Virus record (IMG/VR): IMGVR_UViG_3300047476_001839
Location: 1-56,502 of that record
From: a virus
Lineage: Duplodnaviria > Caudoviricetes
DNA: 56,502 nt
Strand: one strand, 5' to 3'
Part shown: piece by piece, positions 14,769 to 49,948 of the stretch
Layout of the letters: the number at the start of each line of letters is the position of its first letter
Numbering within the stretch: the stretch's first letter is position 1
The notes under the pieces: model-generated
The model's input: only the letters and a program-made list of their open reading frames with translations
Databases searched by the model: none
What the model was told of the DNA's origin: nothing
Program-made: the position numbers and the translations under genes

Positions 14769-14833
14769 TATTAAGCAGAAATATTTCCTAAAAAAATTCT
14801 TTGAATTTTTTTATAATTTATTCGTCGTTAATA
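14769..14833. repeat. 64-bp dyad element, copy 1
   Basis: TATTAA-N7-TA-N5-TAAAAAA...TTTTTTA-N5-TA-N7-TTAATA between terminator and promoter. Confidence 0.9.
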
Positions 14834-14917
14834 TTTTTTTAATTTGTGTCTGGGGATTGAATTTATCTTGACTTTCTATGGCATATGCGATAACATTCAT
14901 ATGTTAAGGAGTTTGAT

Positions 14918-16240
14918 ATGAGCGATAACCGTTTCGATATGTTGGAGTTCGGCGATGCCACCCCTAAGGCAGAGCCAAACAAGGATGTCTTTAAGAACGC
15001 CGGTGGGCTTCAGGTTCGTGAAGGCTCTACCGCAAAGCAGGATGACAATGGCAACTGGTTCAACGCCATTGGTCTTCAGTCTACAGAGACCCATCGCCAC
15101 GTTGCCAAGATATGGCAAGACAAGTGCGTGTCTCTTGAATCATTCTACAGCACCTTGAAAGCCCAAGATGCCAACAAGGTTGACGTTGTCAAGGCAGAGT
15201 CTGCCATTCGCCTGCAAGATTCATCCACCTTGCTTGATGGTACGCCATTAACCAAGTCTGGTATGAATTCGCTTCGCCTGTTCACCGACATCCCTTCATC
15301 CATGATTTCATTCATGGAAGAGCGTGGTTACAATGACGAACTGGTCAAGTTCGTTAACGACGAACTTAATCGTCGTGAGCGAGAGTGGGCAAACAAGGGC
15401 AAGGATGCAAGAGAATTCCGTGTCCGCACCCGTCATGATGATGATGGTAACACCGTTGCTCGTGCTATCGTCTCTGAGCGATATGGTGTTATCGACAACC
15501 TTGAAGCAATGGAGATGATAATTGATGCTCTCCCCTCCAAGGATGCCATCAAGGATGCTCTTGCATCACACCTTCACAACGATGGTGATGATATGTTCGG
15601 CAACCTGCTCTTGCCTGACAACATCAAGTCAGAGCCAGACTCCGACTATGGGGTTGGCATTGCGTTCCGCAACAGTGAGGTACGCAACAGCACCTTCAAG
15701 GTATCGCCGTTCCTCTTCCGTGCCATTTGTCTTAATGGCATGATATGGGGTCGGCAAGATTCCAGCATCAAAGTCAACCAACGCCATATGGGCAACATTG
15801 ACAAGCAGGAATTGCGTGAAGAGGTTCGCCGTGCCATTGTTGTGGCATTGTCTCAAGGTAACGACCTATTGACATTGCTTGGACATTCCAAGCACGTTGA
15901 GGTCAAGAACCCAGAGCAGGTTATTGCACAGTTGTCCCGTGACAACAAGATGACCATAGCGCAGGGTAAACTCTGGCACAAGGGTTACCTTGAATCTTTG
16001 CAAGAGGCAAGTGGTCATTCCCATGACCGCACCGCCTTCGGTATCGTTAACGGCTTGACCCGTTCTGCTCAACAGTACACTGGTAGCACTCGTGAGCAGA
16101 TGGAGACAATCGCTAGTGCAATCCTTGCACCTGCCATTGATGCAGACCTCCAAGCGATTTCCAAGCGATGGGGTTTGATATCTGAGAGAGCCAAGTCTCT
16201 TGATGATGACACTGTTCTCCAGTATGCCTACATCAGGTAG
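14918..16240 (+). CDS. DUF932-family protein
   Basis: RAIVSERYGVIDN, GIAFRNSEVRNSTFKVSPFLFRAICLNGMI, TAFGIVNGLT. Confidence 0.7.
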   Translation: MSDNRFDMLEFGDATPKAEPNKDVFKNAGGLQVREGSTAKQDDNGNWFNAIGLQSTETHRHVAKIWQDKCVSLESFYSTLKAQDANKVDVVKAESAIRLQDSSTLLDGTPLTKSGMNSLRLFTDIPSSMISFMEERGYNDELVKFVNDELNRREREWANKGKDAREFRVRTRHDDDGNTVARAIVSERYGVIDNLEAMEMIIDALPSKDAIKDALASHLHNDGDDMFGNLLLPDNIKSEPDSDYGVGIAFRNSEVRNSTFKVSPFLFRAICLNGMIWGRQDSSIKVNQRHMGNIDKQELREEVRRAIVVALSQGNDLLTLLGHSKHVEVKNPEQVIAQLSRDNKMTIAQGKLWHKGYLESLQEASGHSHDRTAFGIVNGLTRSAQQYTGSTREQMETIASAILAPAIDADLQAISKRWGLISERAKSLDDDTVLQYAYIR

Positions 16241-16283
16241 GCATACCCTCAATGGGGAGTGGAAAATTCCACTCCCCATTTTT

Positions 16284-16347
16284 TATTAACTAAAAATATT
16301 TTCTAAAAAATTCTTTTGAATTTTTTAAGATTTATTCGTTGTTAATA
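16284..16347. repeat. 64-bp dyad element, copy 2
   Basis: Consensus match. Confidence 0.92.
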
Positions 16348-16415
16348 AATTTTTGTTTTAAATTACCCTTGCAATGTCTGGCATATGTGATAATATTATC
16401 AGTGAGGAACCTATT

Positions 16416-18440
16416 ATGATTATCGACAAGTCAGACAAGACAATCGTCACCACAGGCATCCAGTCGGAAGCCTTCTTCTCCGTCAAGCAGGAAAACCTGT
16501 CCCACCTGTTGGGCATTCTTCGCAACCAGTTGTATTCCGATAAGATTCAAGCGGTCATTCGTGAATACTGCACCAACGCAATGGATGCTAACATCGACGC
16601 TGGTGTACCTGATTGCCCAATTCAAGTCTCTCTCCCAAACTCGTTCTCACCTATCTTTAAGGTACGTGATTTCGGCAAGGGACTCTCCGAGGAGCAGATT
16701 TACAGCATCTACATCTCATTCGGTGATTCTTCTAAGCGTAACACCAATGACCAGACAGGTTGTCTTGGACTTGGTTCCAAGTCTGCATTCGCTTACGTGG
16801 ACAATTTCACCCTGACATCGTACCACGGTGGGCTTAAGAGTGTTTACTCTGCATTCATCGACGAGTCGGAAATTGGTAAAATCACCCGCTTGACTTGCGA
16901 GCCAACAGATGAGCCAACAGGCATTGAGGTATCAATTGCAGTCAAGTCAGGAGACTATCGCCAGTTCTCCGACAAGTGCTTCGACGTGCTTAAGTATTTC
17001 AGTCCTAAGCCAATAGTTCACAACGACCATGCTCTGCAAGCAAACATTGATGCATTCGACTCGAACCCTATCCTTGCTACCGACAATTGGACAATTTACA
17101 AGGATGGTCGCTGGGGATATAACAGGCATAGCCTCAAGGTTGTGATGGGCAATGTCGCATACCCTGTAAACTTGGATGCCCTTGGAGTTGGCTCGCAGTT
17201 TGCATCCTACATCCATTCATTCCGATACATGGAAATTGCCATCAAAGCACCTATCGGAGCAGTTAAAAACAACGCCTCCCGTGAGGCTTTGGACTATAAC
17301 CCTAAGACACAATCTTGGCTGTTCAATGCCTTGGCAGATTTCAAGGAACAGGTTGGTGCGGAACTCTCCAAGCAGATGGAATCGGCAGAGACAATGTGGG
17401 ACGCTCTGATGATGTACCGAAATTTGTCTGATAAGGTAGGCAATGCTAACGTCCTTTCCTACCGTGGTGTACAGATTAACTCTAACTACATCAAATTGCC
17501 TAACGATGTGAAGGCACGTAAGGTTGAGAAGAACCGCAACAATAAGTTAAAGTGGGATGAAGCCATTGCGATAATGCCTCACCCTGAAGCACGTATCTTT
17601 GTTGACAATGGAAGCGTTAAGCGTCACGAACTCTTCGGTCGCATCGAGTCCTACGGTGACCTAACAGAGCAAACGTACCTGCTTCAGTTTGAATCTCAAG
17701 CCAAGGTTGACGAATTCTTCGCAAAAGAAATCCTTCAGGGTTGTCCTTGGACAGACCTTAACGATGCACCATACGTCAAGCCGACCCGTAAAGCCACGAA
17801 CATCAAGTCTGTGTATTCTGAGGGCTATCTGTTTGAACCAACCAGCCGATGGCGTAACGCAGACTATTGGAAGCCTTGCCAGATTGACGTTGCCAACGGT
17901 GAAGGAATCTATGTGGTCATATCCCATTACACTCCTGTCGCTTCAAGCATCAGTATCAGTGGTATTGAAGCGTTGAAGAAGCAACTCCTCAAGTGTGGTA
18001 TTGATGTTCCAGTTTATGGCGTTCGTGCAAAGACCGCCTTAACTCTTGGCTCCGGGTGGAAATCTTACGAGACCTTCACCAAGGAAATGTTCAATGACCT
18101 GACCGCCAAGCACGGGATGGATAAGAATTGGGACTACCTTACTGCATCTATCGATAGCGTTGTCAGAGAACTTGCTACTGAAAAGTTTGATGGGTTTGTA
18201 TTCCCTGCTTGCATTCAGGACGTTGTTGATACAATCACGTATGTTCACAACCTCAGATGGAATGATGAGATGTATCTTGCTCAACACCTGTTCGATAGCC
18301 GTAGTGGTTCTTACGAGTCTAAACTCCAGCCAAAAATTCAACAGGTCTTTGAGGCTTACCCTATGCTCCGGTTTGTTGGTTGGTTGTTCAACAGACCTGA
18401 TATTGATAAGGTGAAGGACTACATCAATTTGGTTGGGTAG
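16416..18440 (+). CDS. rIIA: RIIA-like protein (GHKL/HATPase N-terminus)
   Basis: LYSDKIQAVIREYCTNAMDA, VRDFGKGL, SSKRNTNDQTGCLGLGSKSAFAY, SREALDY; adjacent to rIIB-like gene. Confidence 0.88.
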   Translation: MIIDKSDKTIVTTGIQSEAFFSVKQENLSHLLGILRNQLYSDKIQAVIREYCTNAMDANIDAGVPDCPIQVSLPNSFSPIFKVRDFGKGLSEEQIYSIYISFGDSSKRNTNDQTGCLGLGSKSAFAYVDNFTLTSYHGGLKSVYSAFIDESEIGKITRLTCEPTDEPTGIEVSIAVKSGDYRQFSDKCFDVLKYFSPKPIVHNDHALQANIDAFDSNPILATDNWTIYKDGRWGYNRHSLKVVMGNVAYPVNLDALGVGSQFASYIHSFRYMEIAIKAPIGAVKNNASREALDYNPKTQSWLFNALADFKEQVGAELSKQMESAETMWDALMMYRNLSDKVGNANVLSYRGVQINSNYIKLPNDVKARKVEKNRNNKLKWDEAIAIMPHPEARIFVDNGSVKRHELFGRIESYGDLTEQTYLLQFESQAKVDEFFAKEILQGCPWTDLNDAPYVKPTRKATNIKSVYSEGYLFEPTSRWRNADYWKPCQIDVANGEGIYVVISHYTPVASSISISGIEALKKQLLKCGIDVPVYGVRAKTALTLGSGWKSYETFTKEMFNDLTAKHGMDKNWDYLTASIDSVVRELATEKFDGFVFPACIQDVVDTITYVHNLRWNDEMYLAQHLFDSRSGSYESKLQPKIQQVFEAYPMLRFVGWLFNRPDIDKVKDYINLVG

Positions 18441-18490: not shown

Positions 18491-18555
18491 TATTAACTAC
18501 CGCTAAATTCTAAAAAATTTCTTTGAAATTTTTTAGAATTTATTTCTCGTTAATA
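18491..18555. repeat. 64-bp dyad element, copy 3
   Basis: Consensus match. Confidence 0.9.
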
Positions 18556-18645
18556 AATTTAGCTCTATTTAAAAAGTAAGGATAATTGTGCTTGCACACG
18601 TATGAGATATGCGATAATATACATCTGTTAGTGAAGGAGAATGTT

Positions 18646-19797
18646 ATGGAAATAACCGCATCGTTGTTGAACCCGAACCCTGCTGATGGGTTCCTCACTG
18701 TCGTAGTTGATGGTAAGCAACATACCATCCTTGCAAGCAACCCTATGTTTGCATCTGCCGTCTCCGCATACCAGACCAAGGATTTCGATGCCTTGATGCT
18801 GGCTCTTGACCCGTCCCGCAAGTTCCTCAACCTCTACGCCAAGTATGAGCAAATCGAGGTCAAGGATGGCTCGGTCTTTGTCGATGGTGATACCATCCAG
18901 TCTGTGGTCGCAGACCGCATCATCAATTTCCTTGCAGATGGCGTGGACTGCTTGCCCATCTTCAAGTTTATCACCCGCTTGCAGTTAAATCCAAGCAAAC
19001 GTGCTGTTGATGAACTCTACACGTTCCTTGAGCATAAGCACCTGCCTCTCACCGAGACTGGTACGTTCCTTGCTTACAAGGCTGTCCGTAATGACTACAC
19101 CGATAAGCATACTGGCAGGTTCTTCAACGGTGTTGGAGAGGTCTTGTCGATGCCACGCAACAAGGTAGATGACGATAAGAATGTCGGGTGTTCCTACGGG
19201 TTCCACGCTGGCACTCTCCGGTACGCTTCAGAGTTTGCCTCCGGAAGCGACAAGATGGTTCTGGTTGAAATCGACCCTGCGGATGTTGTAAGCATCCCAA
19301 CCGATTGCGAGTTCCAGAAACTCCGCACCTGCCGATACAAGGTAGTTGCAGAGTATGAGCGACCGCTGGACGAACACGTCTATGAGTCACGCTTCTCCAC
19401 AGAGCATGATGATGATGTGGACGAAGAGTGGGATGATGAGTCATCTTGCATTGAATGCGAAAGTTATTCAATCGATTGTGATGATTGCAATTGCTGTAAT
19501 GACTGTTGCGATTGCGATGATGATGACGAGGAATGCTGTATGGCAGACCCTGACCCTGAGCCAGAACAGTTAAGCCTTCCGCTTGACAACAAGATGCAGA
19601 GCATTGATTGGTCTCAAGTCAAAGTCAACATCGATACCCTCTTGAACCACTTGTTCAAATCTCGTCGTCCTGCTCTGGCAATGGCAATTCGACGTGATAA
19701 CAAGGAATTCGATTTCGATGAGATTCCTTTTGGTAGTCTCCGCAACTACACCACGAACGATGATGCTAAAACCATCTACAATGAACTGAACCCCTAA
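18646..19797 (+). CDS. rIIB: RIIB-like protein with Cys/Asp-rich insert
   Basis: NPSKRAVDELYTFL, GTFLAYKAV, MPRNKVDDD..CSYGFHAG, DPADVVSIP.D...KLRTCRYKV. Confidence 0.88.
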   Translation: MEITASLLNPNPADGFLTVVVDGKQHTILASNPMFASAVSAYQTKDFDALMLALDPSRKFLNLYAKYEQIEVKDGSVFVDGDTIQSVVADRIINFLADGVDCLPIFKFITRLQLNPSKRAVDELYTFLEHKHLPLTETGTFLAYKAVRNDYTDKHTGRFFNGVGEVLSMPRNKVDDDKNVGCSYGFHAGTLRYASEFASGSDKMVLVEIDPADVVSIPTDCEFQKLRTCRYKVVAEYERPLDEHVYESRFSTEHDDDVDEEWDDESSCIECESYSIDCDDCNCCNDCCDCDDDDEECCMADPDPEPEQLSLPLDNKMQSIDWSQVKVNIDTLLNHLFKSRRPALAMAIRRDNKEFDFDEIPFGSLRNYTTNDDAKTIYNELNP

Positions 19798-19846: not shown

Positions 19847-19910
19847 TATTAACTACCGATAAATTCTAAAAAATTCTTTCGAATTTTTTAGGATATATTT
19901 CTAGTTAATA
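19847..19910. repeat. 64-bp dyad element, copy 4
   Basis: Consensus match. Confidence 0.9.
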
Positions 19911-21095: not shown

Positions 21096-21100
21096 AAATT

Positions 21101-21164
21101 TATTAACTCTTTCTATAACCTAAGAAATTCTTTCGAATTTCTTAGGTTTTATTTTTGCTTAATA
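21101..21164. repeat. 64-bp dyad element, copy 5
   Basis: Core variant TAAGAAAT/ATTTCTTA (compensatory). Confidence 0.88.
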
Positions 21165-22309: not shown

Positions 22310-23002
22310 ATGTTTAACTGCCCAGAAATAAATCAAATTATAAAAGAGTCTACTTCTATTTCTCAAGTACTTAACAAACTTGGGCTTAAAGCCGCTGGAG
22401 GTAATTATCGTACATTTGATAGATTCGTTAAAAAGAACAATATAGATACTTCGCATTTTACTGGTCAGCTTTGGAGCAAAGGTAAACAACTTCCACCTAA
22501 AAAAGATTTGAAAGAATATCTATGTGAAGGAATTAAAATAACAAGCCACAGATTAAAACAAAGATTGATTAGAGAAAATATCTTTGAACACAAATGTTAT
22601 ATATGTAACATGGATGAATGGATGGGTAAACCAATTCCATTAGAACTAGATCATATAAATGGCGAACACGATGATAATCGCTTAGAAAACTTGAGAATAA
22701 TTTGCCCTAACTGTCATGCTCAAACAGATACATACAGAGCTAAAAATCGGCGTGACAAAAAACCTGTTAAAGACAAGATTGTTAAAGAGATAATTAAATA
22801 TCATTGTCCTGACTGCAGTAAAGAAATACATAAAGAATCTAAATTCTGTGAAGAATGTAGTCACAAAAAATCAAGAAAAGTGGAACGTCCTGATTTGCAA
22901 ACACTTGTGAATGATATTAAGAATTTAGGTTATAGTGCTACCGGAAGAAAATATGGCGTATCGGATAATGCAATTAGGAAATGGGTGAAAAATAGTTCTT
23001 GA
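22310..23002 (+). CDS. free-standing HNH endonuclease with C-terminal Zn finger and HTH
   Basis: LELDHINGEHDDNRLENLRIICPNCHAQT; CPDC..CEEC; GYSATGRKYGVSDNAIRKW. Confidence 0.9.
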   Translation: MFNCPEINQIIKESTSISQVLNKLGLKAAGGNYRTFDRFVKKNNIDTSHFTGQLWSKGKQLPPKKDLKEYLCEGIKITSHRLKQRLIRENIFEHKCYICNMDEWMGKPIPLELDHINGEHDDNRLENLRIICPNCHAQTDTYRAKNRRDKKPVKDKIVKEIIKYHCPDCSKEIHKESKFCEECSHKKSRKVERPDLQTLVNDIKNLGYSATGRKYGVSDNAIRKWVKNSS

Positions 23003-23731: not shown

Positions 23732-23794
23732 TATTAACTATTACTATATTCTAAAAAAATCTATAGATTTTTTAAGATATATTTTTAGTTAATG
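23732..23794. repeat. 64-bp dyad element, copy 6
   Basis: Consensus match. Confidence 0.88.
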
Positions 23795-23856
23795 TTTTTT
23801 TATTTATTGACATATGGCTTGAGTTGCTATATACTTTTAATAACAAGGATGGGACG

Positions 23857-24374: not shown

Positions 24375-24638
24375 ATGAACGATATTTTAACTAAAGTTGA
24401 TTTTCCTACAAAAAAAGGTGCATTGTATCTTTACAAAGGCAAATATAAAGTTATTGGTGATGAGATTCATGATGGTATTACTGTAATTCGTACTTCCAAA
24501 TGTTCAGAAGGATATTTCAGTTACACATCCATCAGATTCGGTGGATTTGAATATCACTCTGAAAAAGATACCAAAAGTAAAATGGTTGAAAAAAAGTTCT
24601 TTGGTGGAGAATGGTTTGAAATAAATGAGGGTGGGTAG
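24375..24638 (+). CDS. hypothetical protein
   Basis: Start moved to MNDIL, after the hairpins. Confidence 0.6.
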   Translation: MNDILTKVDFPTKKGALYLYKGKYKVIGDEIHDGITVIRTSKCSEGYFSYTSIRFGGFEYHSEKDTKSKMVEKKFFGGEWFEINEGG

Positions 24639-24697
24639 CTTAATAGTAAAGCAGAGGATATAAACCTTTGAAATGGGTGTAATTCCCATCCCACTTA
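24629..24697 (+). tRNA. degenerate tRNA-like element (apparent anticodon ATA)
   Basis: Cloverleaf with D arm GCTT-AATAGTA-AAGC but loop ATATAAA and T-loop TGTAATT. Confidence 0.5.
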
Positions 24698-25335: not shown

Positions 25336-25397
25336 TATTAACAACGAATATATCTTAAAAAATCTTTAGATTTTTTATATTCTAGAAACTGTTAATA
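25336..25397. repeat. 64-bp dyad element, copy 7
   Basis: Consensus match, 6-nt centre. Confidence 0.88.
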
Positions 25398-27774: not shown

Positions 27775-27838
27775 TATTAACCTTTTCTAGATTCTAAAAA
27801 ATTCTAAAGAATTTTTTAAGATTTATTCGTTCTTAATA
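27775..27838. repeat. 64-bp dyad element, copy 8
   Basis: Consensus match. Confidence 0.9.
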
Positions 27839-29031: not shown

Positions 29032-29095
29032 TATTAACAGTTTCTAAAACCTAAAAAATTCTATAGAATTTTTTAGAATATATTAAAGGTTAATA
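29032..29095. repeat. 64-bp dyad element, copy 9
   Basis: Consensus match. Confidence 0.9.
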
Positions 29096-29099: not shown

Positions 29100-29732
29100 A
29101 TGTTCTTACAAATGGATCACCCTAAAAATGTTGTTTTCGATGTTGACCCTTGGTTGCATATTAAACCAGAAGAAGCAATGGAAGCACCGGTTTCTGTTTA
29201 TGTAAATGAGTTCTCTGAGGAAGCTGTTAGAATTTTCCTTGAAGACATTACTAAAGCAAACAATACATCACAACCAATCATTCCTATTTATATTGATTCA
29301 TATGGTGGGGATGTGTATGCTTTAATGGCCATGATTGATATTATTGAAAGTTCAGAAAAACCATGTGCTACTATTTGTGTTGGAAAAGCAATGTCCTGTG
29401 GTGCTGTTCTTCTTGCTTGTGGTGAAAAAGGCCACAGATATGTAAGTAATAACTCAACAATAATGATTCACGATGTATCTTCATTTTCAGAGGGCAAATC
29501 CGAGGAAATTAAATCAGATGCAGCAGAGACAGATAGATTGCAAAAACAGTTCTATAAGTTGCTCGACAGAAAATGCGACAGGAAGGATGGATACTTTGAT
29601 AAATTGGTTTTTAACAAAGGTAGATCGAATTTGTATTTGGATGCTGAACAATGCATAAAGCACGGTTTAGCTGATGAAATTAAAATACCAAAGTTTACTG
29701 TCGAGATTGTGCATAACATTATATTTGAGTAG
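29100..29732 (+). CDS. second, divergent ClpP-family protease
   Basis: IYIDSYGGDV, KAMSCGA, IMIHDVS, NLYLDAEQC..GLADEI. Confidence 0.85.
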   Translation: MFLQMDHPKNVVFDVDPWLHIKPEEAMEAPVSVYVNEFSEEAVRIFLEDITKANNTSQPIIPIYIDSYGGDVYALMAMIDIIESSEKPCATICVGKAMSCGAVLLACGEKGHRYVSNNSTIMIHDVSSFSEGKSEEIKSDAAETDRLQKQFYKLLDRKCDRKDGYFDKLVFNKGRSNLYLDAEQCIKHGLADEIKIPKFTVEIVHNIIFE

Positions 29733-31118: not shown

Positions 31119-31182
31119 TATTAAGAGGAAATAAATCATAAAAAAATCTATAGATTTTTTTAGAATATAGTAGAGGTTAATA
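31119..31182. repeat. 64-bp dyad element, copy 10
   Basis: Consensus match. Confidence 0.9.
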
Positions 31183-33840: not shown

Positions 33841-34272
33841 ATGTATATAGCAGTAGATGCCTTAGCGAATGTAGATGATTCAAAACTCTCTTACATGATT
33901 TTTCCATTTGATGAAGATTTGTTAGAAGCGATTGAAGAGAACTTAAAAGAAATCCGCATTGATGATGAACTTACTTTTCCTATTAAAGATGTATTACTTA
34001 GCCGAGGCGAGTTTCATTATGTTCGCAAAAAAGTGACAATGACAGAGATTTCGGAACATCGTTTTTGTATTGCCAGGAACACCGATTCTATCCCAAAGTT
34101 ACAAAACCCAAAACTCCACGTTACAAATGATTACTTTTATTTTTCAGGATTCGGTAAACAGGGTGCAAAGAAAGACAGCCCAGCAATCAAGTTTGTCTCT
34201 GAAAACTTTAATATTGTAACGATTGAAAAGTTGAGGAAATATGTCAAGAGTAAAAGAGATATGGTAAACTAA
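33841..34272 (+). CDS. hypothetical protein
   Basis: Leaderless after TATGAT. Confidence 0.7.
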   Translation: MYIAVDALANVDDSKLSYMIFPFDEDLLEAIEENLKEIRIDDELTFPIKDVLLSRGEFHYVRKKVTMTEISEHRFCIARNTDSIPKLQNPKLHVTNDYFYFSGFGKQGAKKDSPAIKFVSENFNIVTIEKLRKYVKSKRDMVN

Positions 34273-34276: not shown

Positions 34277-34618
34277 ATGGAAGAAAAAGTTTGGATTTAT
34301 TTATCGAAAACTGGCACTGGCTTTCAATTAGCCGGTGCAGATATCATTTCAGGTTTCGATGCTTTTGTTAATGCTGATGGCTCTTATTTAATCGAGCATT
34401 CCTATTCTGATATTAAAGGCGATGAGCATTTCTTTATTTATGAATGGGACAAATCACAAAAGAAGCGCAGAACTATTTACGAAGGATATCAAAGACAAAT
34501 TGTATTGATTGGGTTTGTTAAAAATGTTGATATTCCAGAAAGCACCAAAGAAGCAATTTTAAAAAACTATTTATTTGATGAAGAAGAATTAGAATTAGAA
34601 AAAAATGCAAACTCCTGA
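34277..34618 (+). CDS. hypothetical protein (paralog of next)
   Basis: WIYLSKT..FFIYEW..FVKNVDIP. Confidence 0.75.
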   Translation: MEEKVWIYLSKTGTGFQLAGADIISGFDAFVNADGSYLIEHSYSDIKGDEHFFIYEWDKSQKKRRTIYEGYQRQIVLIGFVKNVDIPESTKEAILKNYLFDEEELELEKNANS

Positions 34619-34638
34619 ATACTAGGATAAAATACACT

Positions 34639-34953
34639 ATGCAAAAACCAAAGTATTGGATTTATAATTCAAAAACAAATTCAGGTAGAGAAGTTTTTTA
34701 TAACACAGATTTCTTCAAGCCTATGGATACGGAGATTTTTGTTGATGGTATTTTTCCTTCTATTGATGGAGAGACATATTTCATTAAACGTGAACGTGGC
34801 TTGGATGGTGATTGGGTGTTTTTTGTTTATGAATGGAAATTAAACCAAGAAAAACGAAACTCCCTTTTGCAACCAAAAAAAATCTTGATGGATTTCGCTA
34901 AAAATGTTGAACTACCATCTAAAATAAAAAATGGAATCCTGTCGGGGAGTTAG
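34639..34953 (+). CDS. hypothetical protein (paralog of previous)
   Basis: WIYNSKT..FFVYEW..FAKNVELP. Confidence 0.75.
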   Translation: MQKPKYWIYNSKTNSGREVFYNTDFFKPMDTEIFVDGIFPSIDGETYFIKRERGLDGDWVFFVYEWKLNQEKRNSLLQPKKILMDFAKNVELPSKIKNGILSGS

Positions 34954-35466: not shown

Positions 35467-35588
35467 ATATTATCTCACTGGTCTTTTCCGGTGAGATTTT
35501 TTTCTTTTGAGAGTAGATATAACAAAGTAACAGCGAAACCAATAAAAGTAAATAAAATACCCATTATTTGCATATGTTCCTCCAAAAA

Positions 35589-35649
35589 TATTAACAAGAA
35601 ATATATTGTAAAAAATCAGAGATTTTTTAAGATTTATTTTCACTTAATA
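35589..35649. repeat. 64-bp dyad element, copy 12
   Basis: Consensus match, short centre. Confidence 0.82.
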
Positions 35650-36686: not shown

Positions 36687-36813
36687 TGAAGAGTTGAACA
36701 TCGCATCTGGCACTGAAATGATGAAAGCAAGCCAGATGAGAACTGTTGTATATCAGGACAAAACCAAGTACAATAGGAAAGTTAAACACAAGAAAGGCTC
36801 AGACAATGAGTGA
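36664..36813 (+). CDS. small basic protein
   Basis: AAGGG SD; QDKTKYNRKVKHK. Confidence 0.55.
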   Translation: MKKYKRYNEELNIASGTEMMKASQMRTVVYQDKTKYNRKVKHKKGSDNE

Positions 36814-37084
36814 TTTTAACCTTGAAGTTGATACAGAAAAGTTTAATGTAGTTAGACGCAAACTTTCTTTTGACTGTAATCAAGATTTATCTAACGAAGA
36901 AGTAATTAATATCCTAATCGATAATGCTTACAAAAACTCTAAACCAAAACAAAGAGTTAGAGTAAGCAGAGATATCATTGTTCAAGAAGCAGAAAATGGT
37001 CTCTCCGTAAGACAAATCGCAGAAAAATATGATGTTTCTTGGTCTACTATATTCCGTGCTAAAAAATTAGGCAAGCAATCTTAA
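36806..37084 (+). CDS. HTH DNA-binding protein
   Basis: GLSVRQIAEKYDVSWSTIFRA. Confidence 0.75.
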   Translation: MSDFNLEVDTEKFNVVRRKLSFDCNQDLSNEEVINILIDNAYKNSKPKQRVRVSRDIIVQEAENGLSVRQIAEKYDVSWSTIFRAKKLGKQS

Positions 37085-37114: not shown

Positions 37115-37178
37115 TATTAACTACGAATAAAACTTAAAAAAATCTATAGATTTTTTTAGAATATAGTTTTGGTTAATA
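37115..37178. repeat. 64-bp dyad element, copy 13
   Basis: Consensus match. Confidence 0.92.
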
Positions 37179-37240
37179 AATAAATTTAATTTGACATATA
37201 TCATTAACTACCATATACTGTTGTTGTAAGGAGTTAGGAA

Positions 37241-37552
37241 ATGGTAATCGATTTAGACGAGAGAACAGTGGACAATGCTCTTTTTACCCTTAAAGAGCGA
37301 ACGAATTTCATGATTTGTGTCCAAGTAATAACCTTAATAGCAGTTTTGACTATAGTGGGTTTTCATTCAAGAGTAACCTTCTATAATGGTTTAAGAATGG
37401 CTATCGATATGCCCTTATTACCATGCATCACCACCGCTATACTAACAGGCATTGGGGTATTCTGCCAAGTACACCGCTCAATTCTTAACTATATGAGATT
37501 CAGACTGATTTGCTCTTATCTCAAAGATGGTTCGATTACACTGGAGATTTAG
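37241..37552 (+). CDS. membrane protein
   Basis: Two TM segments; promoter plus AAGGAG. Confidence 0.7.
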   Translation: MVIDLDERTVDNALFTLKERTNFMICVQVITLIAVLTIVGFHSRVTFYNGLRMAIDMPLLPCITTAILTGIGVFCQVHRSILNYMRFRLICSYLKDGSITLEI

Positions 37553-37555
37553 TTT

Positions 37556-38005
37556 ATGTCAACACACGCACGAATTGGCTTGATGCTTCATGATGGGACA
37601 ATCAAGCACTCTTATGTTCATTTCGATGGTTACCCTGAAGGTGTAGGTGAAACACTGGTAATGCATTATAATGATATTGAGAAAATTGAAGAGCTGTTAA
37701 GTTTTGGTGATATGTCTACACTTCAACCAAACATTCATCCTCAAGGTACACATACTTTTGAAAAAAGAGAAGATGGTGTTTGCTTATTCTATAACAGAGA
37801 CCGTGGCGAAACCAATGTCGATGCAGTAGTTTCTTCTATGGATGAATTACACAGCATATACTATAACAGTGTAGATTATTATTACCTGTATAGTGGTGGT
37901 AATTGGTTTGTTAAGAATGTCATCGAAAATGAAGGATGGGACAGAGTAGAGAAGTTTCTGCCTGCATATACCTTGACAGAAGAAGATTACGCCTGTACTA
38001 TATAG
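37556..38005 (+). CDS. hypothetical phage protein
   Basis: MSTHARIG..YVHFDGYPEGVG..GDMSTL..YNRDRGE. Confidence 0.8.
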   Translation: MSTHARIGLMLHDGTIKHSYVHFDGYPEGVGETLVMHYNDIEKIEELLSFGDMSTLQPNIHPQGTHTFEKREDGVCLFYNRDRGETNVDAVVSSMDELHSIYYNSVDYYYLYSGGNWFVKNVIENEGWDRVEKFLPAYTLTEEDYACTI

Positions 38006-38057
38006 ACGTTCATACTGTTTCCTTATCATCCCTCTAATGAAAATTAGGGGGATTTTT
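38005..38057 (+). ncRNA. putative anti-RBS small RNA
   Basis: TTGACA-N17-TACTAT promoter, then reverse complement of AAGGAAACAGTATG, then terminator. Confidence 0.45.
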
Positions 38058-38120
38058 ATTAAGAACGAATAAATCTTAAAAAAATCTATAGATTTTTTTA
38101 GAATATAGTTTTAGTTAATA
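38057..38120. repeat. 64-bp dyad element, copy 14
   Basis: Consensus match. Confidence 0.92.
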
Positions 38121-38459: not shown

Positions 38460-38805
38460 ATGTGAGGTTGGAGTCGAGAACCAGCCTCATACAGTGAGAG
38501 TCCTAAACGGCTAGAATCTATTGCGAGATTCAAATAAGGGTAGCAACCTTGGAGTAGTTAAATCTACAATCTCTTACTGATTCCTTGGCAGGGACTGACG
38601 CAAACAGTTATGTCAAGGCAAATGATTTGTGGTTAGATACTATGCTCTCATTTGAGACACGGGTATCATCGAAGGCAGAGACCATCGAAAGAACTGCTAA
38701 TTTCATCTAGTGAAAACTAGGTGTGGATTGAAATCGTACTGGTTGAACTCCAGCTAACCACGAGTCCATTAAAAACCCCCTAAGACTTTTCTTGGGGGTT
38801 TTTTT
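38460..38805 (+). ncRNA. large (~310 nt plus terminator) structured non-coding RNA of unknown family
   Basis: TTGCAC-N17-TAATAT promoter; no ORF in track; at least 10 stems including long-range CAGTGAGAG/CTCTTACTG and GTGGTTAG/CTAACCAC; own terminator. Confidence 0.7.
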
Positions 38806-38868
38806 ATTAACAACGAATAAATCATAAAAAATTCTATAGAATTTTTTAGAATATATTTTTCGTTAATA
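38805..38868. repeat. 64-bp dyad element, copy 15
   Basis: Consensus match. Confidence 0.92.
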
Positions 38869-38914: not shown

Positions 38915-39133
38915 ATGAAACTTGAACAGGTCTTACCAATGCTTCGTGATGGTAAATGCATCTCAAGAGAAAAGCCACAACAAAACGGTGGGGCTTTGAT
39001 TTTATTTGTAAGAATGTTGAATGAAAAATTGCATTTCATGTTCATTGCATCAACTGGAGAACAAATTTCATGGTCATATTACACACTTAAAACTGATGAT
39101 GTAATGGCAGAAAATTGGGAGGTAGTAGAATGA
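38915..39133 (+). CDS. Tad2/DUF2829-like protein
   Basis: MKLEQVLPMLRDGKCISR...DDVMAENWEVVE. Confidence 0.6.
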   Translation: MKLEQVLPMLRDGKCISREKPQQNGGALILFVRMLNEKLHFMFIASTGEQISWSYYTLKTDDVMAENWEVVE

Positions 39134-39808: not shown

Positions 39809-39872
39809 TATTAACAACGAATAAATCATAAAAAATTCTATAGAATTTTTTAGAATATATTTTTACTTAATA
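39809..39872. repeat. 64-bp dyad element, copy 16
   Basis: Consensus match. Confidence 0.92.
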
Positions 39873-40252: not shown

Positions 40253-40315
40253 TATTAACCAAAAATATAATCTAAAAAATTCAAAGAATTTTTTAAGCTT
40301 TAGAAACTGTTAATA
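40253..40315. repeat. 64-bp dyad element, copy 17
   Basis: Consensus match; between convergent terminators. Confidence 0.88.
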
Positions 40316-41440: not shown

Positions 41441-41504
41441 TATTAACAACGAATAAATCTTAAAAAATTCTATGGAATTTTTTAGAATATACTTTTACTT
41501 AATA
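41441..41504. repeat. 64-bp dyad element, copy 18 (reference)
   Basis: TATTAA CAACGAA TA AATCT TAAAAAAT TCTATGGA ATTTTTTA GAATA TA CTTTTAC TTAATA. Confidence 0.93.
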
Positions 41505-41922: not shown

Positions 41923-42246
41923 ATGAGAGATTACATGACACTTGGTTCAGTTCCATATGAAGAAGACTGCATTCAGATGGGTAAAGATGGACAAAGAGAA
42001 GAATGTCGCAAGTTTGTCAATATGCTCAGAGAGAAGTTTATCAACATTCCTGAGTGGGCTTCTTTTTCAGTAAAGTCCAATCCTTACGAGTATGATTATT
42101 ACTACGAAGCCGCTGTAAACTGGAACGATGATGATGAAGAATCAACACAGTTTGCATTCTTTGTTGAAAGCAATATTCCAGCTCGATGGGATGACACAGA
42201 GCAGATTGACTGGAAAGCACCAAAAAAAGTGCTGACCGAGGCTTAA
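41923..42246 (+). CDS. hypothetical phage protein
   Basis: LGSVPYEEDCIQMG..YYEA..PARWD. Confidence 0.8.
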   Translation: MRDYMTLGSVPYEEDCIQMGKDGQREECRKFVNMLREKFINIPEWASFSVKSNPYEYDYYYEAAVNWNDDDEESTQFAFFVESNIPARWDDTEQIDWKAPKKVLTEA

Positions 42247-42277
42247 CAAAGAGGGCGGAAGCCCTCTTTGTTTTTTT

Positions 42278-42341
42278 TATTAACAACGAATAAATCATAA
42301 AAAATTCTATAGAATTTTTTAGAATATATTTTTAGTTAATA
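42278..42341. repeat. 64-bp dyad element, copy 19
   Basis: Consensus match. Confidence 0.93.
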
Positions 42342-42796: not shown

Positions 42797-42860
42797 TATT
42801 AACCAAAAATATTTTCTAAAAAATATTTATATATTTTTTAAGCTTTATTCGTTGTTAATA
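42797..42860. repeat. 64-bp dyad element, copy 20
   Basis: Consensus match; between convergent terminators. Confidence 0.9.
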
Positions 42861-43522: not shown

Positions 43523-43586
43523 TATTAACATTTACTATATTCTAAAAAATTCATTTGAATTTTTTAAGCTTTATTTTCAGTTAATA
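43523..43586. repeat. 64-bp dyad element, copy 21
   Basis: Consensus match. Confidence 0.9.
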
Positions 43587-43963: not shown

Positions 43964-44397
43964 TACTTCTCATCCTCTGCAAACGGCTTTACGGTCTCGA
44001 TGACGTTCATTAGTTCGCTGGTCATTTTCTGGCGAATGCCTACGACAACTTGCCATTGCTTTGCTTTGAGCACATCCATATCAAGGTTTTGGAACTGCTC
44101 GCTGGTCATACGCCCAACCATGCCATCAAGCAAGATTGTCAACTTAGCCTTGTCGTTGCCGTAGTAGGTTTTGGTGTAAGTGATGAAACGGAACGGTTGG
44201 CCATCATTGTCTCTAACCTCGGTGCTTTCAAAAATCCATTTGAAGGTCGGTACAAGAACGTTAGGGTCATCAAAGGATTTAACCTGTACCGCTTCGCAAT
44301 CAATGAGGGCACAAATGTAAGTGCCCTGAAGCTCGGCTACACTGTGCTTCTTTCCATTACCTGCCGAGAACTTCCCGTGCTGTGCAAAAAATCCCAT
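43963..44397 (-). CDS. putative OB-fold ssDNA-binding-like phage protein
   Basis: GTYICALID..FKWIFE..DGQPF..KAKLTILLDGMVGR. Confidence 0.5.
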   Translation of the reverse strand: MGFFAQHGKFSAGNGKKHSVAELQGTYICALIDCEAVQVKSFDDPNVLVPTFKWIFESTEVRDNDGQPFRFITYTKTYYGNDKAKLTILLDGMVGRMTSEQFQNLDMDVLKAKQWQVVVGIRQKMTSELMNVIETVKPFAEDEK

Positions 44398-44688: not shown

Positions 44689-44752
44689 TATTAAGTAAAA
44701 ATATATTCTAAAAAATTTATTTAAATTTTTTATGATTTATTCGTTGTTAATA
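44689..44752. repeat. 64-bp dyad element, copy 22
   Basis: Consensus match. Confidence 0.92.
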
Positions 44753-45792: not shown

Positions 45793-45856
45793 TATTAACA
45801 ACGAATAAATTGTAACAAATTTTATAAAATTTGTTAGGAAATACTTTTAGTTAATA
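45793..45856. repeat. 64-bp dyad element, copy 23
   Basis: Core variant TAACAAAT/ATTTGTTA. Confidence 0.92.
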
Positions 45857-46150: not shown

Positions 46151-46172
46151 TATTAATAACAGATATATCCTA
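46151..46172. repeat. half-site of the dyad element
   Basis: TATTAA-N7-TA-N5-TA. Confidence 0.6.
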
Positions 46173-46221
46173 AAGAAAGATTATTTAAAAATTAACCCTT
46201 GACTTTCGTCAAGGGTTGTTA

Positions 46222-46478: not shown

Positions 46479-46517
46479 TATTAACTACGAATATATCCTA
46501 ACAAACCTAATTTGTTA
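46479..46517. repeat. truncated dyad element (left arm plus core)
   Basis: TATTAA CTACGAA TA TATCC TAACAAAC CTA ATTTGTTA. Confidence 0.7.
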
Positions 46518-46552
46518 AAAACAGCCCTTGACTTTCGTCAAGGGCTGAAAGT

Positions 46553-46854: not shown

Positions 46855-46919
46855 TATTAACAAGGAATAAATTTTAACAAATTTCAATGAAATTTGTTAG
46901 GAAATATTTTTAGTTAATA
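46855..46919. repeat. 64-bp dyad element, copy 24
   Basis: Core variant TAACAAAT/ATTTGTTA. Confidence 0.92.
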
Positions 46920-47532: not shown

Positions 47533-47596
47533 TATTAACAGGGAATAAATTGTAACAAATTCTTTAGAATTTGTTAGGAAATATTTTTAGTTAATA
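47533..47596. repeat. 64-bp dyad element, copy 25
   Basis: Core variant TAACAAAT/ATTTGTTA. Confidence 0.92.
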
Positions 47597-47929: not shown

Positions 47930-48256
47930 ATGGAAAACACTACTGAAAAGCCAAAAGCTGTTACAAAGAAAACCAAAGTCGAACTCTCCTACCGTCAATG
48001 GATGCGTATCATTAACTATTACGCTATATCTGTGTGCGGTATTACAGTACCTCATATATCGGACTGGTGCTGGAGAGATGAATTCTGTGAAGACCTGACA
48101 ACTCTGGAAAACCACATCAATAATGCACGAGAGTCTTTTGAGACTTTCCTAGCGGATGTAGAGCCAGGTCATTACAATCAGATGGTTGATGAATTTTCAA
48201 AGCTGACTGAAGACTTGCTGAAAAACAAAGACCTCTTGGGCAAGGTTGTAGCATAG
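47930..48256 (+). CDS. hypothetical protein (MENTT..KTKVELS)
   Basis: Leaderless. Confidence 0.75.
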   Translation: MENTTEKPKAVTKKTKVELSYRQWMRIINYYAISVCGITVPHISDWCWRDEFCEDLTTLENHINNARESFETFLADVEPGHYNQMVDEFSKLTEDLLKNKDLLGKVVA

Positions 48257-48313
48257 GCTACAACCTTGTTTCTTTTTCTTGACATATGTCTTAATATGGA
48301 GTATTATATAGGT

Positions 48314-48520: not shown

Positions 48521-48558
48521 CCTATCACATCTCTTGACGAAAGTCAAGAGATGTTTTT

Positions 48559-48622
48559 TATTAACTAAAACTATTTCTTAAAAAATCTGTAAAGATTTTT
48601 TAAGATTTATTCGTTGTTAATA
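48559..48622. repeat. 64-bp dyad element, copy 26
   Basis: Nearly identical to copy 27. Confidence 0.92.
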
Positions 48623-48654: not shown

Positions 48655-48885
48655 TTAATCCACTACCTCCCAGTCATCTTTGAGAAAATCATCCAATATG
48701 TTCGTTGTTAATCTTAGAGCATCATTTGGATAATAGCATTTGTCGCCACGTTTTCGGTCATACTCTGTGGAAGGATATACATCTTCACCATCAAAAGTCT
48801 CCAAGTATTCATCCATTTTCCATTCAGAACGCTTAACTTTGACATTGCCTTTTCTCAATAAATCCAGTGCTTCAAGTCCTGTCAT
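48655..48885 (-). CDS. Tad2/DUF2829-like protein
   Basis: MTGLEALDLLRKGNVKVKRSEW...DDFLKDDWEVVD. Confidence 0.65.
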   Translation of the reverse strand: MTGLEALDLLRKGNVKVKRSEWKMDEYLETFDGEDVYPSTEYDRKRGDKCYYPNDALRLTTNILDDFLKDDWEVVD

Positions 48886-49109
48886 CCCGCTACCTCCCAA
48901 TTATCTGCCTCAAGCTCCTCTGGTGATAGATTGAGGTTTTCACACCAATATATCAGCACAACATCCTCATCTTCTAGAGCATAACCATGGTACTCAAATA
49001 TATTTTCCTTTGCGTTAAAACACAAGTAATATGATTGTGACCACCATGACCGCCTAATACGTTCACCATTCATCAAGCGGTTTTCAACATCTTCAAACTT
49101 CATCTTCAT
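48882..49109 (-). CDS. Tad2/DUF2829-like protein
   Basis: MKFEDVENRLMNGERIRRSWW...LSPEELEADNWEV. Confidence 0.65.
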   Translation of the reverse strand: MKMKFEDVENRLMNGERIRRSWWSQSYYLCFNAKENIFEYHGYALEDEDVVLIYWCENLNLSPEELEADNWEVAG

Positions 49110-49169: not shown

Positions 49170-49233
49170 TATTAACTAAAACTATTTCCTAAAAAATCTG
49201 TAAAGATTTTTTAAGATTTATTCGTTGTTAATA
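49170..49233. repeat. 64-bp dyad element, copy 27
   Basis: Consensus match. Confidence 0.92.
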
Positions 49234-49273
49234 AAATATCCCCAAACCTTTGGTTTGGGGATTAGAATCTGTC

Positions 49274-49498
49274 TTAGTCTTGAAAGTGTTCTATTGCACG
49301 TTCTTCACTTTTTTGGTAAGCCTGTGCAAGTTCTTTTAAAACTTTCATTGTAAATTCATCTGTTTGAATTTTACCAGAGTTCAATATGCTCTCAAGTTTG
49401 CCCAATGAACCTTTAAGATAACCTAGGCGATAATTTTGTATCAGATTCTGCTTATGTCGCTCTTCTGATTGTTGACGATAATAACTCTCTAAATCCAT
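49274..49498 (-). CDS. hypothetical protein
   Basis: AAGGAG SD. Confidence 0.7.
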   Translation of the reverse strand: MDLESYYRQQSEERHKQNLIQNYRLGYLKGSLGKLESILNSGKIQTDEFTMKVLKELAQAYQKSEERAIEHFQD

Positions 49499-49608
49499 CA
49501 CTGTTCTCCTTACACTTATGATTATAGGACATATATCAATAGATTGCAATGAATATTATATAATTAATTCTTCTTGACATATGTCATATTGTGTCGTATT
49601 ATATAGGC

Positions 49609-49857
49609 ATGAACGAACACAACGGTTGGAAGAACGAAACGACTTGGACTATCAACGTTTTCTTTATGGAAACAATTGAAGAGATGTTGAAGGCAGGTAG
49701 TTCACATGAAAACATTGAGTTTCAGATTAAGCGTAAACTCAACCAAGACCTATACTTGGAACAGCGTAACGTCCTTGGCTGTGCATTGAAACTGGTTGAC
49801 TGGGACACGTTGATTGCCAGAGCCACAGAGAATGTTGAAAAGGAGAAGGTTGCATAA
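49609..49857 (+). CDS. hypothetical protein (paralog of 38167)
   Basis: Leaderless; MNEHNGWKNETTW..VDWDTL. Confidence 0.75.
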   Translation: MNEHNGWKNETTWTINVFFMETIEEMLKAGSSHENIEFQIKRKLNQDLYLEQRNVLGCALKLVDWDTLIARATENVEKEKVA

Positions 49858-49885
49858 TGAAAGGAGGGCTTTCGCCCTCCTTTTT

Positions 49886-49948
49886 TATTAACTAAAACTA
49901 TTTCCTAAAAAATCCTAATAGATTTTTTAAGTTTTATTCGTTGTTAAT
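49886..49948. repeat. 64-bp dyad element, copy 28
   Basis: Consensus match. Confidence 0.9.

Follow-up and report, generated by a model that had tools for sequence, protein, structure and literature searches.

The 56,502-base window analysed here, which is the whole of the IMG/VR virus record IMGVR_UViG_3300047476_001839, carries an array of 28 copies of a dyad of about 64 bp, an AT-rich element with two arms of fixed geometry around a central hairpin, repeated at the junctions between small transcription units. The dyad is under position-specific purifying selection and is optional at such junctions, and it appears to be undescribed and specific to one widespread lineage of uncultured phages. 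As to what it does, the explanation that we favour, tentatively and with slightly less than even confidence, is that the dyad would be a cis-acting transcription-control site, set in a junction resembling the promoter-early stem-loop (PeSL) of T4-type phages, which would also supply portable homology for recombination. The accessory early region is put together from small units, each complete in itself, and a single highly regular signal under strong selection links them; among other things the units carry three Tad2-like (putative anti-defence) domains and a methylase/helicase insert.

The record is classed as linear with a CheckV completeness of 16, and the G+C content of the window is 35%; all negative results drawn from the window cover this approximately 16% of the genome, the remaining 84% being unseen. 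Genes, promoters and terminators were called with simple scripts and consensus scans.

Geometry, selection and distribution of the dyad

An initial annotation of this DNA had listed 28 starting positions for the dyad, and every one of them does hold a copy: 27 are strict dyads, in which both arms match TATTAA-N7-TA-N5-TA (relaxed scan, arms paired at 61-65 bp), and one, at 23732, is a variant whose right arm is shifted by one missing T and ends in GTTAATGT. The strict copies are 64 bp long in 21 cases and 65 bp in three, with single copies of 63, 62 and 61 bp. A stricter arm pattern, TATTAANNNNNNNTANNNNNTAANAAA, has 29 forward and 27 reverse matches in the window, and the control, in which the arm pattern was read backwards, has 0 and 0. 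Three partial copies listed there as well, at 7865, 46151 and 46479, are single arms, the last of them retaining the central hairpin too. The array is limited to 14.8-50 kb, the stretches at 1-14.7 kb and 50-56.5 kb being free of dyads except for lone arms. Those found there with the relaxed pattern at 8356 (+), 12327 (+) and 53595 (-) may be chance matches or relics. Under simple calls based on open reading frames (ORFs), all copies are intergenic, as first described.

From outside to inside, each arm reads TATTAA(C), N6, TA, N5 and TAAAAAA, followed by three to four stem bases and the loop, and the terminal inverted repeats TATTAA(C)/(G)TTAATA are invariant. Selection was measured on 35 orthologous pairs of 64-bp copies, in which mismatches amount to 0.7% for the core and, for the variable positions of the arms, to 24% on average, rising to 51% at positions 8, 11 and 13, while the flanks mismatch at 0-57% per position, mostly 10-45%. 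The N6 spacers therefore diverge at the pace of the flanking DNA while TATTAA, TA and TAAAAAA stay nearly constant, and positions 23 and 25-27, which lie outside the detection pattern, differ in no orthologous pair. Judged from the sequence logo, each arm has three conserved patches, with centres near positions 4, 14.5 and 25 and thus about 10.5-11 bp from one another; as this is about one helical turn, the spacing would suit a protein that reads the site along a single face of the helix. Patch conservation and spacing together support the proposal that the dyad is a selected, sequence-specific DNA site.

The central stem (positions 21-30/35-44) is 99.8% paired in 150 distinct copies, and four of its ten pairs change on both sides, as at 24/41, which is AU in 133 copies, CG in 9 and GC in 8. 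There are 107 double-change cells as against 20.5 +/- 3.6 in shuffles, none of 500 shuffles reaching 107, and the same picture of covariation is given by 248 copies. Variation in length is confined to the loop, and the description of the centre as a hairpin of variable length is thus borne out. The outer pair 7/58 is unpaired in 34 of the 150 copies, so that the outer TATTAAC is a sequence motif and not a stem. As single-stranded DNA, six copies fold better than their shuffles (z -2.2 to -4.7). The variable arm bases, said in the initial annotation not to pair, form fewer pairs than shuffles do (e.g., 0.12 vs 0.44 at position 16), because each element carries two different arm flavours. In Rfam 15 the dyad has no match at the gathering score, the eight tRNAs of the window being its sole matches.

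A scan of relatives, one of the checks first suggested, found the 64-bp pattern in 11 stretches from six viral contigs. It also occurs in at least 120 metagenome contigs, and the lineage is thus a common one in metagenomes. There were 0 matches in 185,579 prokaryote genomes, and a host site or a host mobile element can therefore be ruled out. The six viral contigs are 71-94% identical to window positions 18.9-50.4 kb, largely collinear with them, and contain 51 further full dyads, while the metagenome loci among the matches listed amount to 478,691 bases with 302 full dyads. Pooling the window, the six viral contigs and the metagenome loci among the matches listed, on which the pooled-copy statistics are based, gives 381 copies, of which 334 are distinct when flanks of +/-40 nucleotides (nt) are included. 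No description of the dyad was found in the main texts of the open-access literature searched, and the available part of a paper on pelagimyophages (PMC7029224) contains nothing on such repeats.

Junction context, arm polarity and a candidate regulator

About 17 of the 28 copies in the window lie between a terminator, formed by a GC hairpin and a T-run, and a promoter of the form TTGACA-17-TAnnnT. The T-run stands directly against one arm in 25 of the 28, which agrees with the placement directly after terminators reported at the outset, the exceptions being the copies at 21101, 29032 and 35589. Sigma-70-type promoters follow the dyad at a distance of 11 to about 36 nt, and canonical cassettes (e.g., at 37115, 39809 and 41441) continue with a Shine-Dalgarno sequence and a start codon. 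Two copies, at 42797 and 48559, lie between convergent units, as had been noted. The copies and half elements are as follows, the elements themselves being given no strand.

14769-14833, 65-bp dyad; T-run of a (+) terminator against the left arm, promoter -35 34 nt past the right arm
16284-16347, 64-bp dyad; upstream of rIIA, left terminator, -35 at +21
18491-18555, 65-bp dyad; between rIIA and rIIB, left terminator, promoter at +36
19847-19910, 64-bp dyad; left terminator, promoter-like TTGCAT at +3
21101-21164, 64-bp dyad; stem variant AAGAAA/TTTCTT, no terminator, 5 nt after an ORF ending at 21095
23732-23795, variant dyad; one T short in the right T-run, left terminator, right promoter
25336-25397, 62-bp dyad; left terminator
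27775-27838, 64-bp dyad; left terminator, promoter at +23
29032-29095, 64-bp dyad; terminator 12 nt to the left, start of a ClpP-like gene 4 nt past the right arm
31119-31182, 64-bp dyad; left terminator, start of an ORF of 81 amino acids (aa) 3 nt past the right arm
32828-32891, 64-bp dyad; after tRNA-Arg and a terminator, promoter at +11
35589-35649, 61-bp dyad; kept in five relatives, between a 32-aa hydrophobic (-) ORF and a (+) gene
37115-37178, 64-bp dyad; left terminator, TTGACA-17-TATACT at +12
38057-38120, 64-bp dyad; left terminator, promoter at +11
38805-38868, 64-bp dyad; left terminator, promoter at +11, Tad2-like gene downstream
39809-39872, 64-bp dyad; left terminator, promoter at +11
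40253-40315, 63-bp dyad; left terminator
41441-41504, 64-bp dyad; left terminator, promoter at +11
42278-42341, 64-bp dyad; left terminator, promoter at +11
42797-42860, 64-bp dyad; between convergent units, no promoter
43523-43586, 64-bp dyad; serves (-) units, right terminator, promoter 11 nt to the left
44689-44752, 64-bp dyad; serves (-) units, right terminator, promoter 11 nt to the left
45793-45856, 64-bp dyad; stem variant AACAAA/TTTGTT, (-) terminator on the right
46855-46919, 65-bp dyad; stem variant AACAAA/TTTGTT, (-) terminator on the right
47533-47596, 64-bp dyad; stem variant AACAAA/TTTGTT, (-) terminator on the right
48559-48622, 64-bp dyad; between convergent terminators
49170-49233, 64-bp dyad; serves (-) units, right terminator, promoter 11 nt to the left, Tad2-like gene
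49886-49949, 64-bp dyad; last of the array, (+) terminator on the left
7865-7891, lone arm beside a terminator, outside the array
46151-46177, half element, one arm; on the (-) strand, TTGACA-17-TATAAT about 21 nt on
46479-46520, half element, arm and central hairpin; on the (-) strand, TTGACA-17-TAAACT about 21 nt on

Two of these loci place part of the dyad within a transcript. At 29032 the AAGG ribosome site of the ClpP-like gene (start 29100) lies within an arm, as does the GAGG ribosome site of the 81-aa ORF (start 31186) at 31119. Both loci are conserved: the Shine-Dalgarno sequence lies within the N6 of whichever arm faces the gene, the start codon follows 3-7 nt past that arm and a terminator immediately precedes the dyad, from which it follows that the arm is transcribed there. 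A transcription start inside the dyad would account for both. The consensus scan also lists matches to TTAAAA-17-TAGAAT or TATAAT inside several dyads, and beside the dyad at 35589 the (+) gene has an extended -10 sequence, TGnTATAAT, 10 nt past the arm. On the other side of that copy, the 32-aa hydrophobic ORF at 35475-35573 (-), which begins MQIMGILFTFIGFAV..., has a GGAGG 5 nt from the dyad arm and no space for a promoter of its own outside the dyad; it is conserved in four of five relatives, the relative R2 having a different hydrophobic sequence instead. One terminator hairpin, CCCTTGACGAAAGTCAAGGG with near variants, occurs six times, at 45884, 46215, 46544, 46947 and 47623 (-) and at 48531 (+); as the same hairpin recurs in this way, whole terminator-dyad units have been copied, once in the opposite orientation.

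The two arms of an element are of different flavours, A and B, which differ mainly at arm positions 16-20. Among 310 classified elements 176 are AB, two AA, three BB and 129 ambiguous, and orthologous copies retain their flavour order in 16 of the 17 groups listed. In 65 of 80 cases a B-type arm and the -35 of the promoter are separated by exactly 11 nt; for A-type arms the separation is 11-34 nt. Were elements to invert about their palindromic centre, AA or BB elements would arise, an idea that was rejected as only 5 of the 181 clearly typed elements are such. The one possible flip among the 17 groups is between position 8138 of the relative R1 (L012/L013 contig) and window 40253-40315, in which the inner part (about 14-51) has the opposite flavour order and the outer N6 is the same. 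At two further pairs of loci (L024:1117-1180 vs L053:8314-8377, and L065:4366-4429 vs L087:7007-7070) the N6 of the near arm occurs as the alleles ACATCAGTTAT and ATAACTGATAT, with flanks 94-98% identical and centres identical; the alleles share a 9-nt stretch as reverse complements, and this could have come about by chance or through a small inversion or conversion within the arm.

The initial annotation had held that the orientation of the dyad is independent of gene direction. This stands for the order of the A and B flavours, but arm position 17 does follow direction. Read outward, arm positions 22 to 17 give T-A-n-n-A-T, and the last T of this hexamer is present in 91% of 205 promoter-facing arms vs 53% of 195 terminator-facing arms. 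When each flank-homology group is given one vote, position 17 is A (outward TAnnnT) in 61/65 promoter-facing vs 34/56 terminator-facing groups (Fisher p = 1.2e-5), and in the window alone in 17/19 vs 12/20 arms; a comparable difference was found at no other arm position. The polarity does not stem from one copied unit, since the T-less arms adjoin at least five different terminators.

Within the window, the only HTH_23-type match over the cut-off is a small helix-turn-helix (HTH) protein encoded just before the dyad at 37115.

36806-37084 (+), 92-aa HTH protein

This protein is 60-97% identical in every relative covering the locus, with a paralogue in two contigs. In its model (pLDDT, the predicted confidence score, 82), which is all helical and without a catalytic domain, a basic linker joins two helices at the N-terminus to a three-helix HTH, and the C-terminal part of the protein weakly resembles the DNA-binding domains of resolvases and invertases (E 0.007-0.1). 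A Foldseek search against the PDB gave no match at E <= 0.001, the top rows being generic HTH proteins (Tc3, Tn3 resolvase, Mu Mor, LuxR-type). The protein is no more than a candidate binder of the dyad, and could equally bind a palindrome found in the promoters. The palindrome in question, the 10-bp GACATATGTC, occurs 11 times (38134, 42365, 43500, 45699, 46118, 46446, 46771, 47849, 48281, 49147 and 49576), mostly overlapping the -35 and spacer of TTGACA promoters, with weaker CATATG versions in other promoters. It may be the operator through which a regulator acts on the early promoters. Sites for IHF, Fis, CRP and H-NS were compared with the dyad by eye, using their generally known consensus sequences, and none fitted.

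Cassette exchange and gene content

Comparison of the window with its relatives shows that the region is plastic and that some cassette indels end at dyads, in line with the view that dyads bound cassettes. At window 41441 the relative R1 has an additional cassette of 776 bp, flanked by two dyads, and at 48559 another of 553 bp, and R1, R2 and R3 all lack the dyad-bounded window segment 37179-38056. A 4.4-kb insert in R2 (R2 11277-15595; L018:4289-7593, L010:247-918), which encodes an NPPY methylase-like ORF and a ResIII/DEAD helicase-like protein, has a dyad and the same 14 nt at both ends; it lies between the orthologues of 33841-34272 and 34277-34618, where a dyad is absent from five other genomes, and alters the last codons of the upstream gene. 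Other indels have no dyad nearby (window 34619-34946, 43986-44394 and 47944-48278, and an insert at 40905). The dyad itself also comes and goes: at window 42228-42338 the terminator and dyad are absent in R1, with the promoter retained; at another locus the dyad and half a terminator are missing; and at the 81-aa gene three contigs lack the inner 48 nt only.

Among close relatives, breaks in homology are 3-4 times more frequent at junctions with a dyad than at points chosen at random. With one flank required to be at least 93% identical over at least 150 nt, and random points at least 350 nt from a dyad as controls, homology was lost on the other flank in 306/1368 comparisons at dyads vs 79/1275, 89/1351 and 114/1223 at random points (22% vs 6-9%); at 97% identity or more the counts were 113/565 vs 22/442, 29/472 and 22/467. 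The initial annotation had proposed that breakpoints be sought inside the dyad, and they are not focused there. Using N6 identity as a marker, about 19% of breakpoints fall on the near side, about 14% between the N6 blocks and about 67% beyond the far N6, the middle value being roughly the density of the adjoining terminator and promoter DNA, and breakpoints occur with either flank type. Such a roughly even spread is that of homologous exchange along the whole junction, as has been proposed for the PeSL, and not of a fixed crossover. A naive mapping by mismatch density had assigned 78/115 breakpoints to the dyad or to the 15 nt just past it, but this apparent hotspot is biased and was rejected, because any two dyads are about 75-80% alike and hide a loss of homology until the dyad ends.

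No precise excision, empty site or target duplication was found: a junction-spanning search gave 203 matches, and the three presence/absence loci inspected were all imprecise. The idea of N6 as a target duplication applies only to the 81-aa gene locus, where GAGG is present in both arms, and is not general. No match to the families Phage_integrase (PF00589), Resolvase (PF00239) and Y1_Tnp (PF01797) was found in the 114,963 bases that the window and three related contigs comprise, and the 25 Pfam families listed for 101 window ORFs include no catalytic domain of a recombinase or transposase (DDE) and no topoisomerase; the first impression that the window encodes no recombinase is thus upheld. 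The suggestion that cassettes are shuffled by site-specific recombination is not supported by these results, given the lack of an integrase or resolvase in those 114,963 bases, the spread of breakpoints, the imprecise indels, the mixed orientation and cassettes with their own promoters.

It could be asked whether the dyad is a pure recombination module, without any regulatory role, which provides homology in either orientation for cassette swaps by general recombination, as in the mechanism proposed for the PeSL. The dyad-bounded indels in R1, R2 and R3 (776 bp, 553 bp, 37179-38056 and 4.4 kb), the three- to fourfold enrichment of homology loss and the equal linkage of the dyad to either flank type all speak for it. 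Homology as such, on the other hand, needs no fixed patches with a free N6 between them, no covarying stem and no polarity, the share of breakpoints between the N6 blocks roughly equals the density in the adjacent DNA, and several indels have no dyad nearby, so that we regard this as unlikely.

The gene content of the window, some of which has been met above, includes the following.

16374-18440, rIIA
18586-19797, rIIB
38915-39127 (+), 48891-49103 (-) and 48661-48885 (-), Tad2-like (Thoeris anti-defence 2) ORFs, from Pfam
7236-7820 (-) and 29100-29732 (+), ClpP-like protease genes, two in one phage fragment

Other products are an NrdG-like radical-SAM protein, UvdE, a DUF932 protein, a DnaJ-domain protein and two HNH endonucleases. 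One of the three Tad2-like ORFs is above the Pfam cut-off and two are beneath it, and since each occupies its own dyad-bounded cassette the array probably carries anti-defence genes. The HNH endonuclease genes (22310-23002 (+) and 32064-32561 (+)) adjoin tRNA genes, whose surroundings vary among relatives, with breakpoints there that have no dyads. The tRNA-Tyr at 24629-24697 (+), called by ARAGORN, has the unusual anticodon ATA and, at 44.6 bits, the lowest Rfam score of the eight tRNAs. A cultured close relative was looked for by megablast, which returned a 55-bp tRNA match alone. As to whether the phage is of T4 type, rIIA and rIIB are present, rIIA being 25-36% identical to the best phage records in the collection, and the fragment has no core T4 genes. 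As no cultured phage is close, the source is, judged by these comparisons, called an uncultured large lytic phage and not assigned to the T4-type phages.

Interpretation of the dyad and comparison with known systems

The explanation we favour sees each junction as a composite of a GC-hairpin and T-run terminator, the 64-bp dyad and a sigma-70-type promoter, in which the dyad would be read as double-stranded DNA by RNA polymerase and/or a dimeric regulator and would act on the downstream unit. There are two ways in which this could be achieved. In the first, the dyad would be an auxiliary promoter independent of a -35, of the middle type and dependent on an activator, with the -10 at positions 43-48, the start near 55 and TAAAAAA at about -34 to -28. 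In the second, which fits equally well, it would be an upstream operator or activator site for a dimeric regulator. In either case the 92-aa HTH protein would be a candidate for the regulator. The arm facing the promoter or gene keeps the outward -10-like TAnnAT, and the arm facing the terminator often does without the last T; the bias of 61/65 vs 34/56 towards a gene-facing TAnnnT is what a sigma-70 promoter within the dyad would show. As the dyad is repeated at many junctions, these would be portable homology, and homologous exchange between them would, as a side effect that is partly shown, add, remove or replace cassettes. Should the dyad prove to be a regulator-dependent promoter or operator, it would constitute a new phage regulon signal, usable to find early or anti-defence cassettes in uncultured phages as well as the binding protein.

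Several points weigh against a cis-acting control site and should temper the above. Both transcription from the dyad and the binding of a protein to it are predictions. For a sigma-70 promoter in the dyad, NTAAAA at 17 bp in 64-bp copies matches a -35 at only 3-4 of 6 positions, and this -35-like hexamer has no polarity to match that of the -10, T at position 20 being found in 0.32 of terminator-facing vs 0.45 of promoter-facing arms. Such a promoter leaves the invariant TATTAA and the TA at 14-15 unaccounted for, the 61-bp copies would give a spacer of 14 bp, and at the 81-aa gene the arm towards the gene carries TAGGAA or TAAGAA in two relatives. The covariation and the tolerated changes in loop length fit a hairpin or cruciform better than a rigid duplex site for a dimer. 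Terminator-promoter junctions free of the dyad exist (30055/30086, 31607/31641, 33781/33806 and 48238/48279), with strong consensus promoters, so that the dyad is not required for promoter or terminator. With respect to recombination, a looser junction test gave only 36% vs 29%, the separation needing the restriction to close relatives, and as the controls are mostly coding the enrichment marks the junctions as mosaic breaks and not the dyad as their cause. Many of the pooled copies are moreover orthologous to each other, so the metagenome copies are not independent.

Alternatively, the dyad could be a structural DNA element, that is a cruciform or a site for topoisomerase, gyrase or a nucleoid protein, which buffers or insulates supercoiling and read-through between closely packed, strongly transcribed units, insulation having been the other role suggested in the initial annotation; such a buffering role has reportedly been proposed for repetitive extragenic palindromes (REP) and bacterial interspersed mosaic elements (BIME). 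The covarying stem with its free loop length, the folding of single strands, the recurrence of TA steps and A/T tracts at about one helical turn and the placement from terminator to promoter, as well as between convergent units with no promoter, would all be in keeping with this. The polarity at position 17 is unexpected for a symmetric buffer, the element is optional at otherwise similar junctions, the strictly invariant TATTAA indicates that bases are read specifically, and a topoisomerase gene is missing from the 25 Pfam families listed for the window; taken together, a structural role seems improbable to about the same degree as a pure recombination module.

A third alternative is a selfish miniature mobile element, similar to a miniature inverted-repeat transposable element (MITE) or a REP, with TATTAAC/GTTAATA as its terminal inverted repeats and a transposase encoded elsewhere in the genome. 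The repeats are short and end in TA (or TTAA), as would those of elements targeting TA or TTAA, the copies are many, non-coding and in both orientations, they are optional at junctions, and R2 has two dyads where five other genomes have none. Decay is nevertheless uneven (0.7% mismatch in the core vs up to 50% in the spacers), the three inspected loci are imprecise, with no precise empty site or target duplication, the window and three related contigs have no catalytic domain of a DDE, Y1, tyrosine or serine recombinase, and terminator T-runs and promoters are found at a set distance from an arm, which makes a selfish origin quite unlikely.

We consider it more doubtful still that the dyad is a structure-specific site for site-specific recombination, like attC or an invertase site, making up an integron-like array in a lytic phage. 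In favour are the two arms kept different (AB 176 vs AA 2 and BB 3), the outer AAC/GTT, unpaired spacers and paired inner stem, which recall the generally known form of a folded attC, a 26-bp centre in the usual crossover format of serine recombinases, the dyad boundaries of some cassettes and the weak likeness of the HTH protein to resolvase/invertase DNA-binding domains. Against it, there is no integrase or resolvase in 114,963 bases and no single crossover point, the dyads are of mixed orientation along the array, the cassettes have their own promoters and terminators, the indels are imprecise, the pair 7/58 is often unpaired, and the HTH protein, with 92 aa, is all helical and has no catalytic domain. 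The boldest form of the idea, to which we give just as little credence, would have the dyads as hairpin or cruciform sites for a recombinase or nuclease in the unseen part of the genome, forming an orientation-free platform for anti-defence and accessory cassettes in a lytic jumbo phage, with the asymmetry of the arms setting the choice of strand or partner. Least likely of all is a signal at the level of RNA in read-through transcripts, either an RNase processing site or a back-up bidirectional terminator: such transcripts would include a dyad lying directly after a terminator, whichever strand is read the hairpin contains both an A-tract and a U-tract, and the arm is part of the 5' leader at two loci, but the stem is AU-only with the U-tract itself paired and so does not resemble a terminator, which strand pairs better (G-U at 19/46) is not consistently linked to transcription direction, the invariant unpaired motifs are unaccounted for and Rfam has no match.

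Among the known systems with which the dyad may be compared, the attC sites of integrons are imperfect palindromes with a conserved outer AAC/GTT, unpaired spacers and a paired inner stem, and they bound gene cassettes. The dyad shares with them a similar length, these features and its place at cassette boundaries; it differs in that the window and three related contigs have no IntI, that its orientation is mixed (A-to-B and B-to-A, with units on both strands), that the cassettes carry promoters, that sequence and not only structure is conserved and that there is no single crossover point. REP/BIME and Correia-type elements are numerous short intergenic palindromes, some of which bind gyrase or IHF or carry promoters or terminators. 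Like them, the dyad is found in many copies after genes and in both orientations, but it is restricted to a phage lineage, with no RAYT or transposase found, a patterned purifying selection and no target duplication. Compared by such generally known features, attC, hix/res, REP/BIME and MITE each have a defining feature, among those tested, that the dyad lacks, and an integron-like reading is not supported.

The middle promoters of T4 consist of a MotA box at -30 and a -10 element, that is a -10 TAnnnT without a -35, and often lie upstream of early promoters. The dyad resembles them in its TAnnnT without a -35 and in the position of TAAAAAA at about -34 to -28 from a putative start near 55, while the sequence and spacing of the box differ, the dyad is symmetric and no MotA or AsiA homologue was identified. 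A functional analogue may be seen in halovirus HF2, which has AT-rich intergenic repeats of 58 and 29 bp with promoter activity, conserved among relatives (Russ et al., 2021, PMC8707807). In both viruses short AT-rich intergenic repeats are conserved in sequence and position; the promoters of HF2 are of the archaeal TATA/BRE type, with no dyad symmetry or hairpin covariation reported in the available part of that paper, and here the canonical promoters lie outside the repeat.

The closest parallel is the PeSL of T4-type phages, which in the available portions of its descriptions comprises a terminator stem-loop, an AT-rich stretch, a sigma-70-like early promoter and a Shine-Dalgarno sequence, is repeated between small accessory ORFs in plastic regions, beside indels and replacements between close relatives, and is proposed to recombine within its AT-rich part (Arbiol et al., 2010, PMC2839356; Comeau et al., 2014, PMC4122927). 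Mini-circles arising by recombination between adjacent modules are a further trait of the PeSL. The initial annotation had called it an inexact analogue, which is right as far as the fixed dyad goes but misses the resemblance of the whole junction, since stem-loop, AT-rich stretch, early promoter, Shine-Dalgarno sequence and plastic surroundings beside indels are all present here. No fixed-geometry dyad figures in these portions, in which the string "palindrom" occurs 0 times (PMC2839356). What fills the AT-rich part in this phage is the 64-bp dyad, whose patches are invariant, whose stem covaries and which has a polarity of its own, and it is also found without a promoter or without a terminator. 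By this analogy the dyad junction can be regarded as a PeSL-like module that includes a fixed dyad. To the PeSL idea, in which regulatory junctions also serve for exchange, it contributes a precisely delimited sequence on which recombination as well as cruciform formation can be studied.

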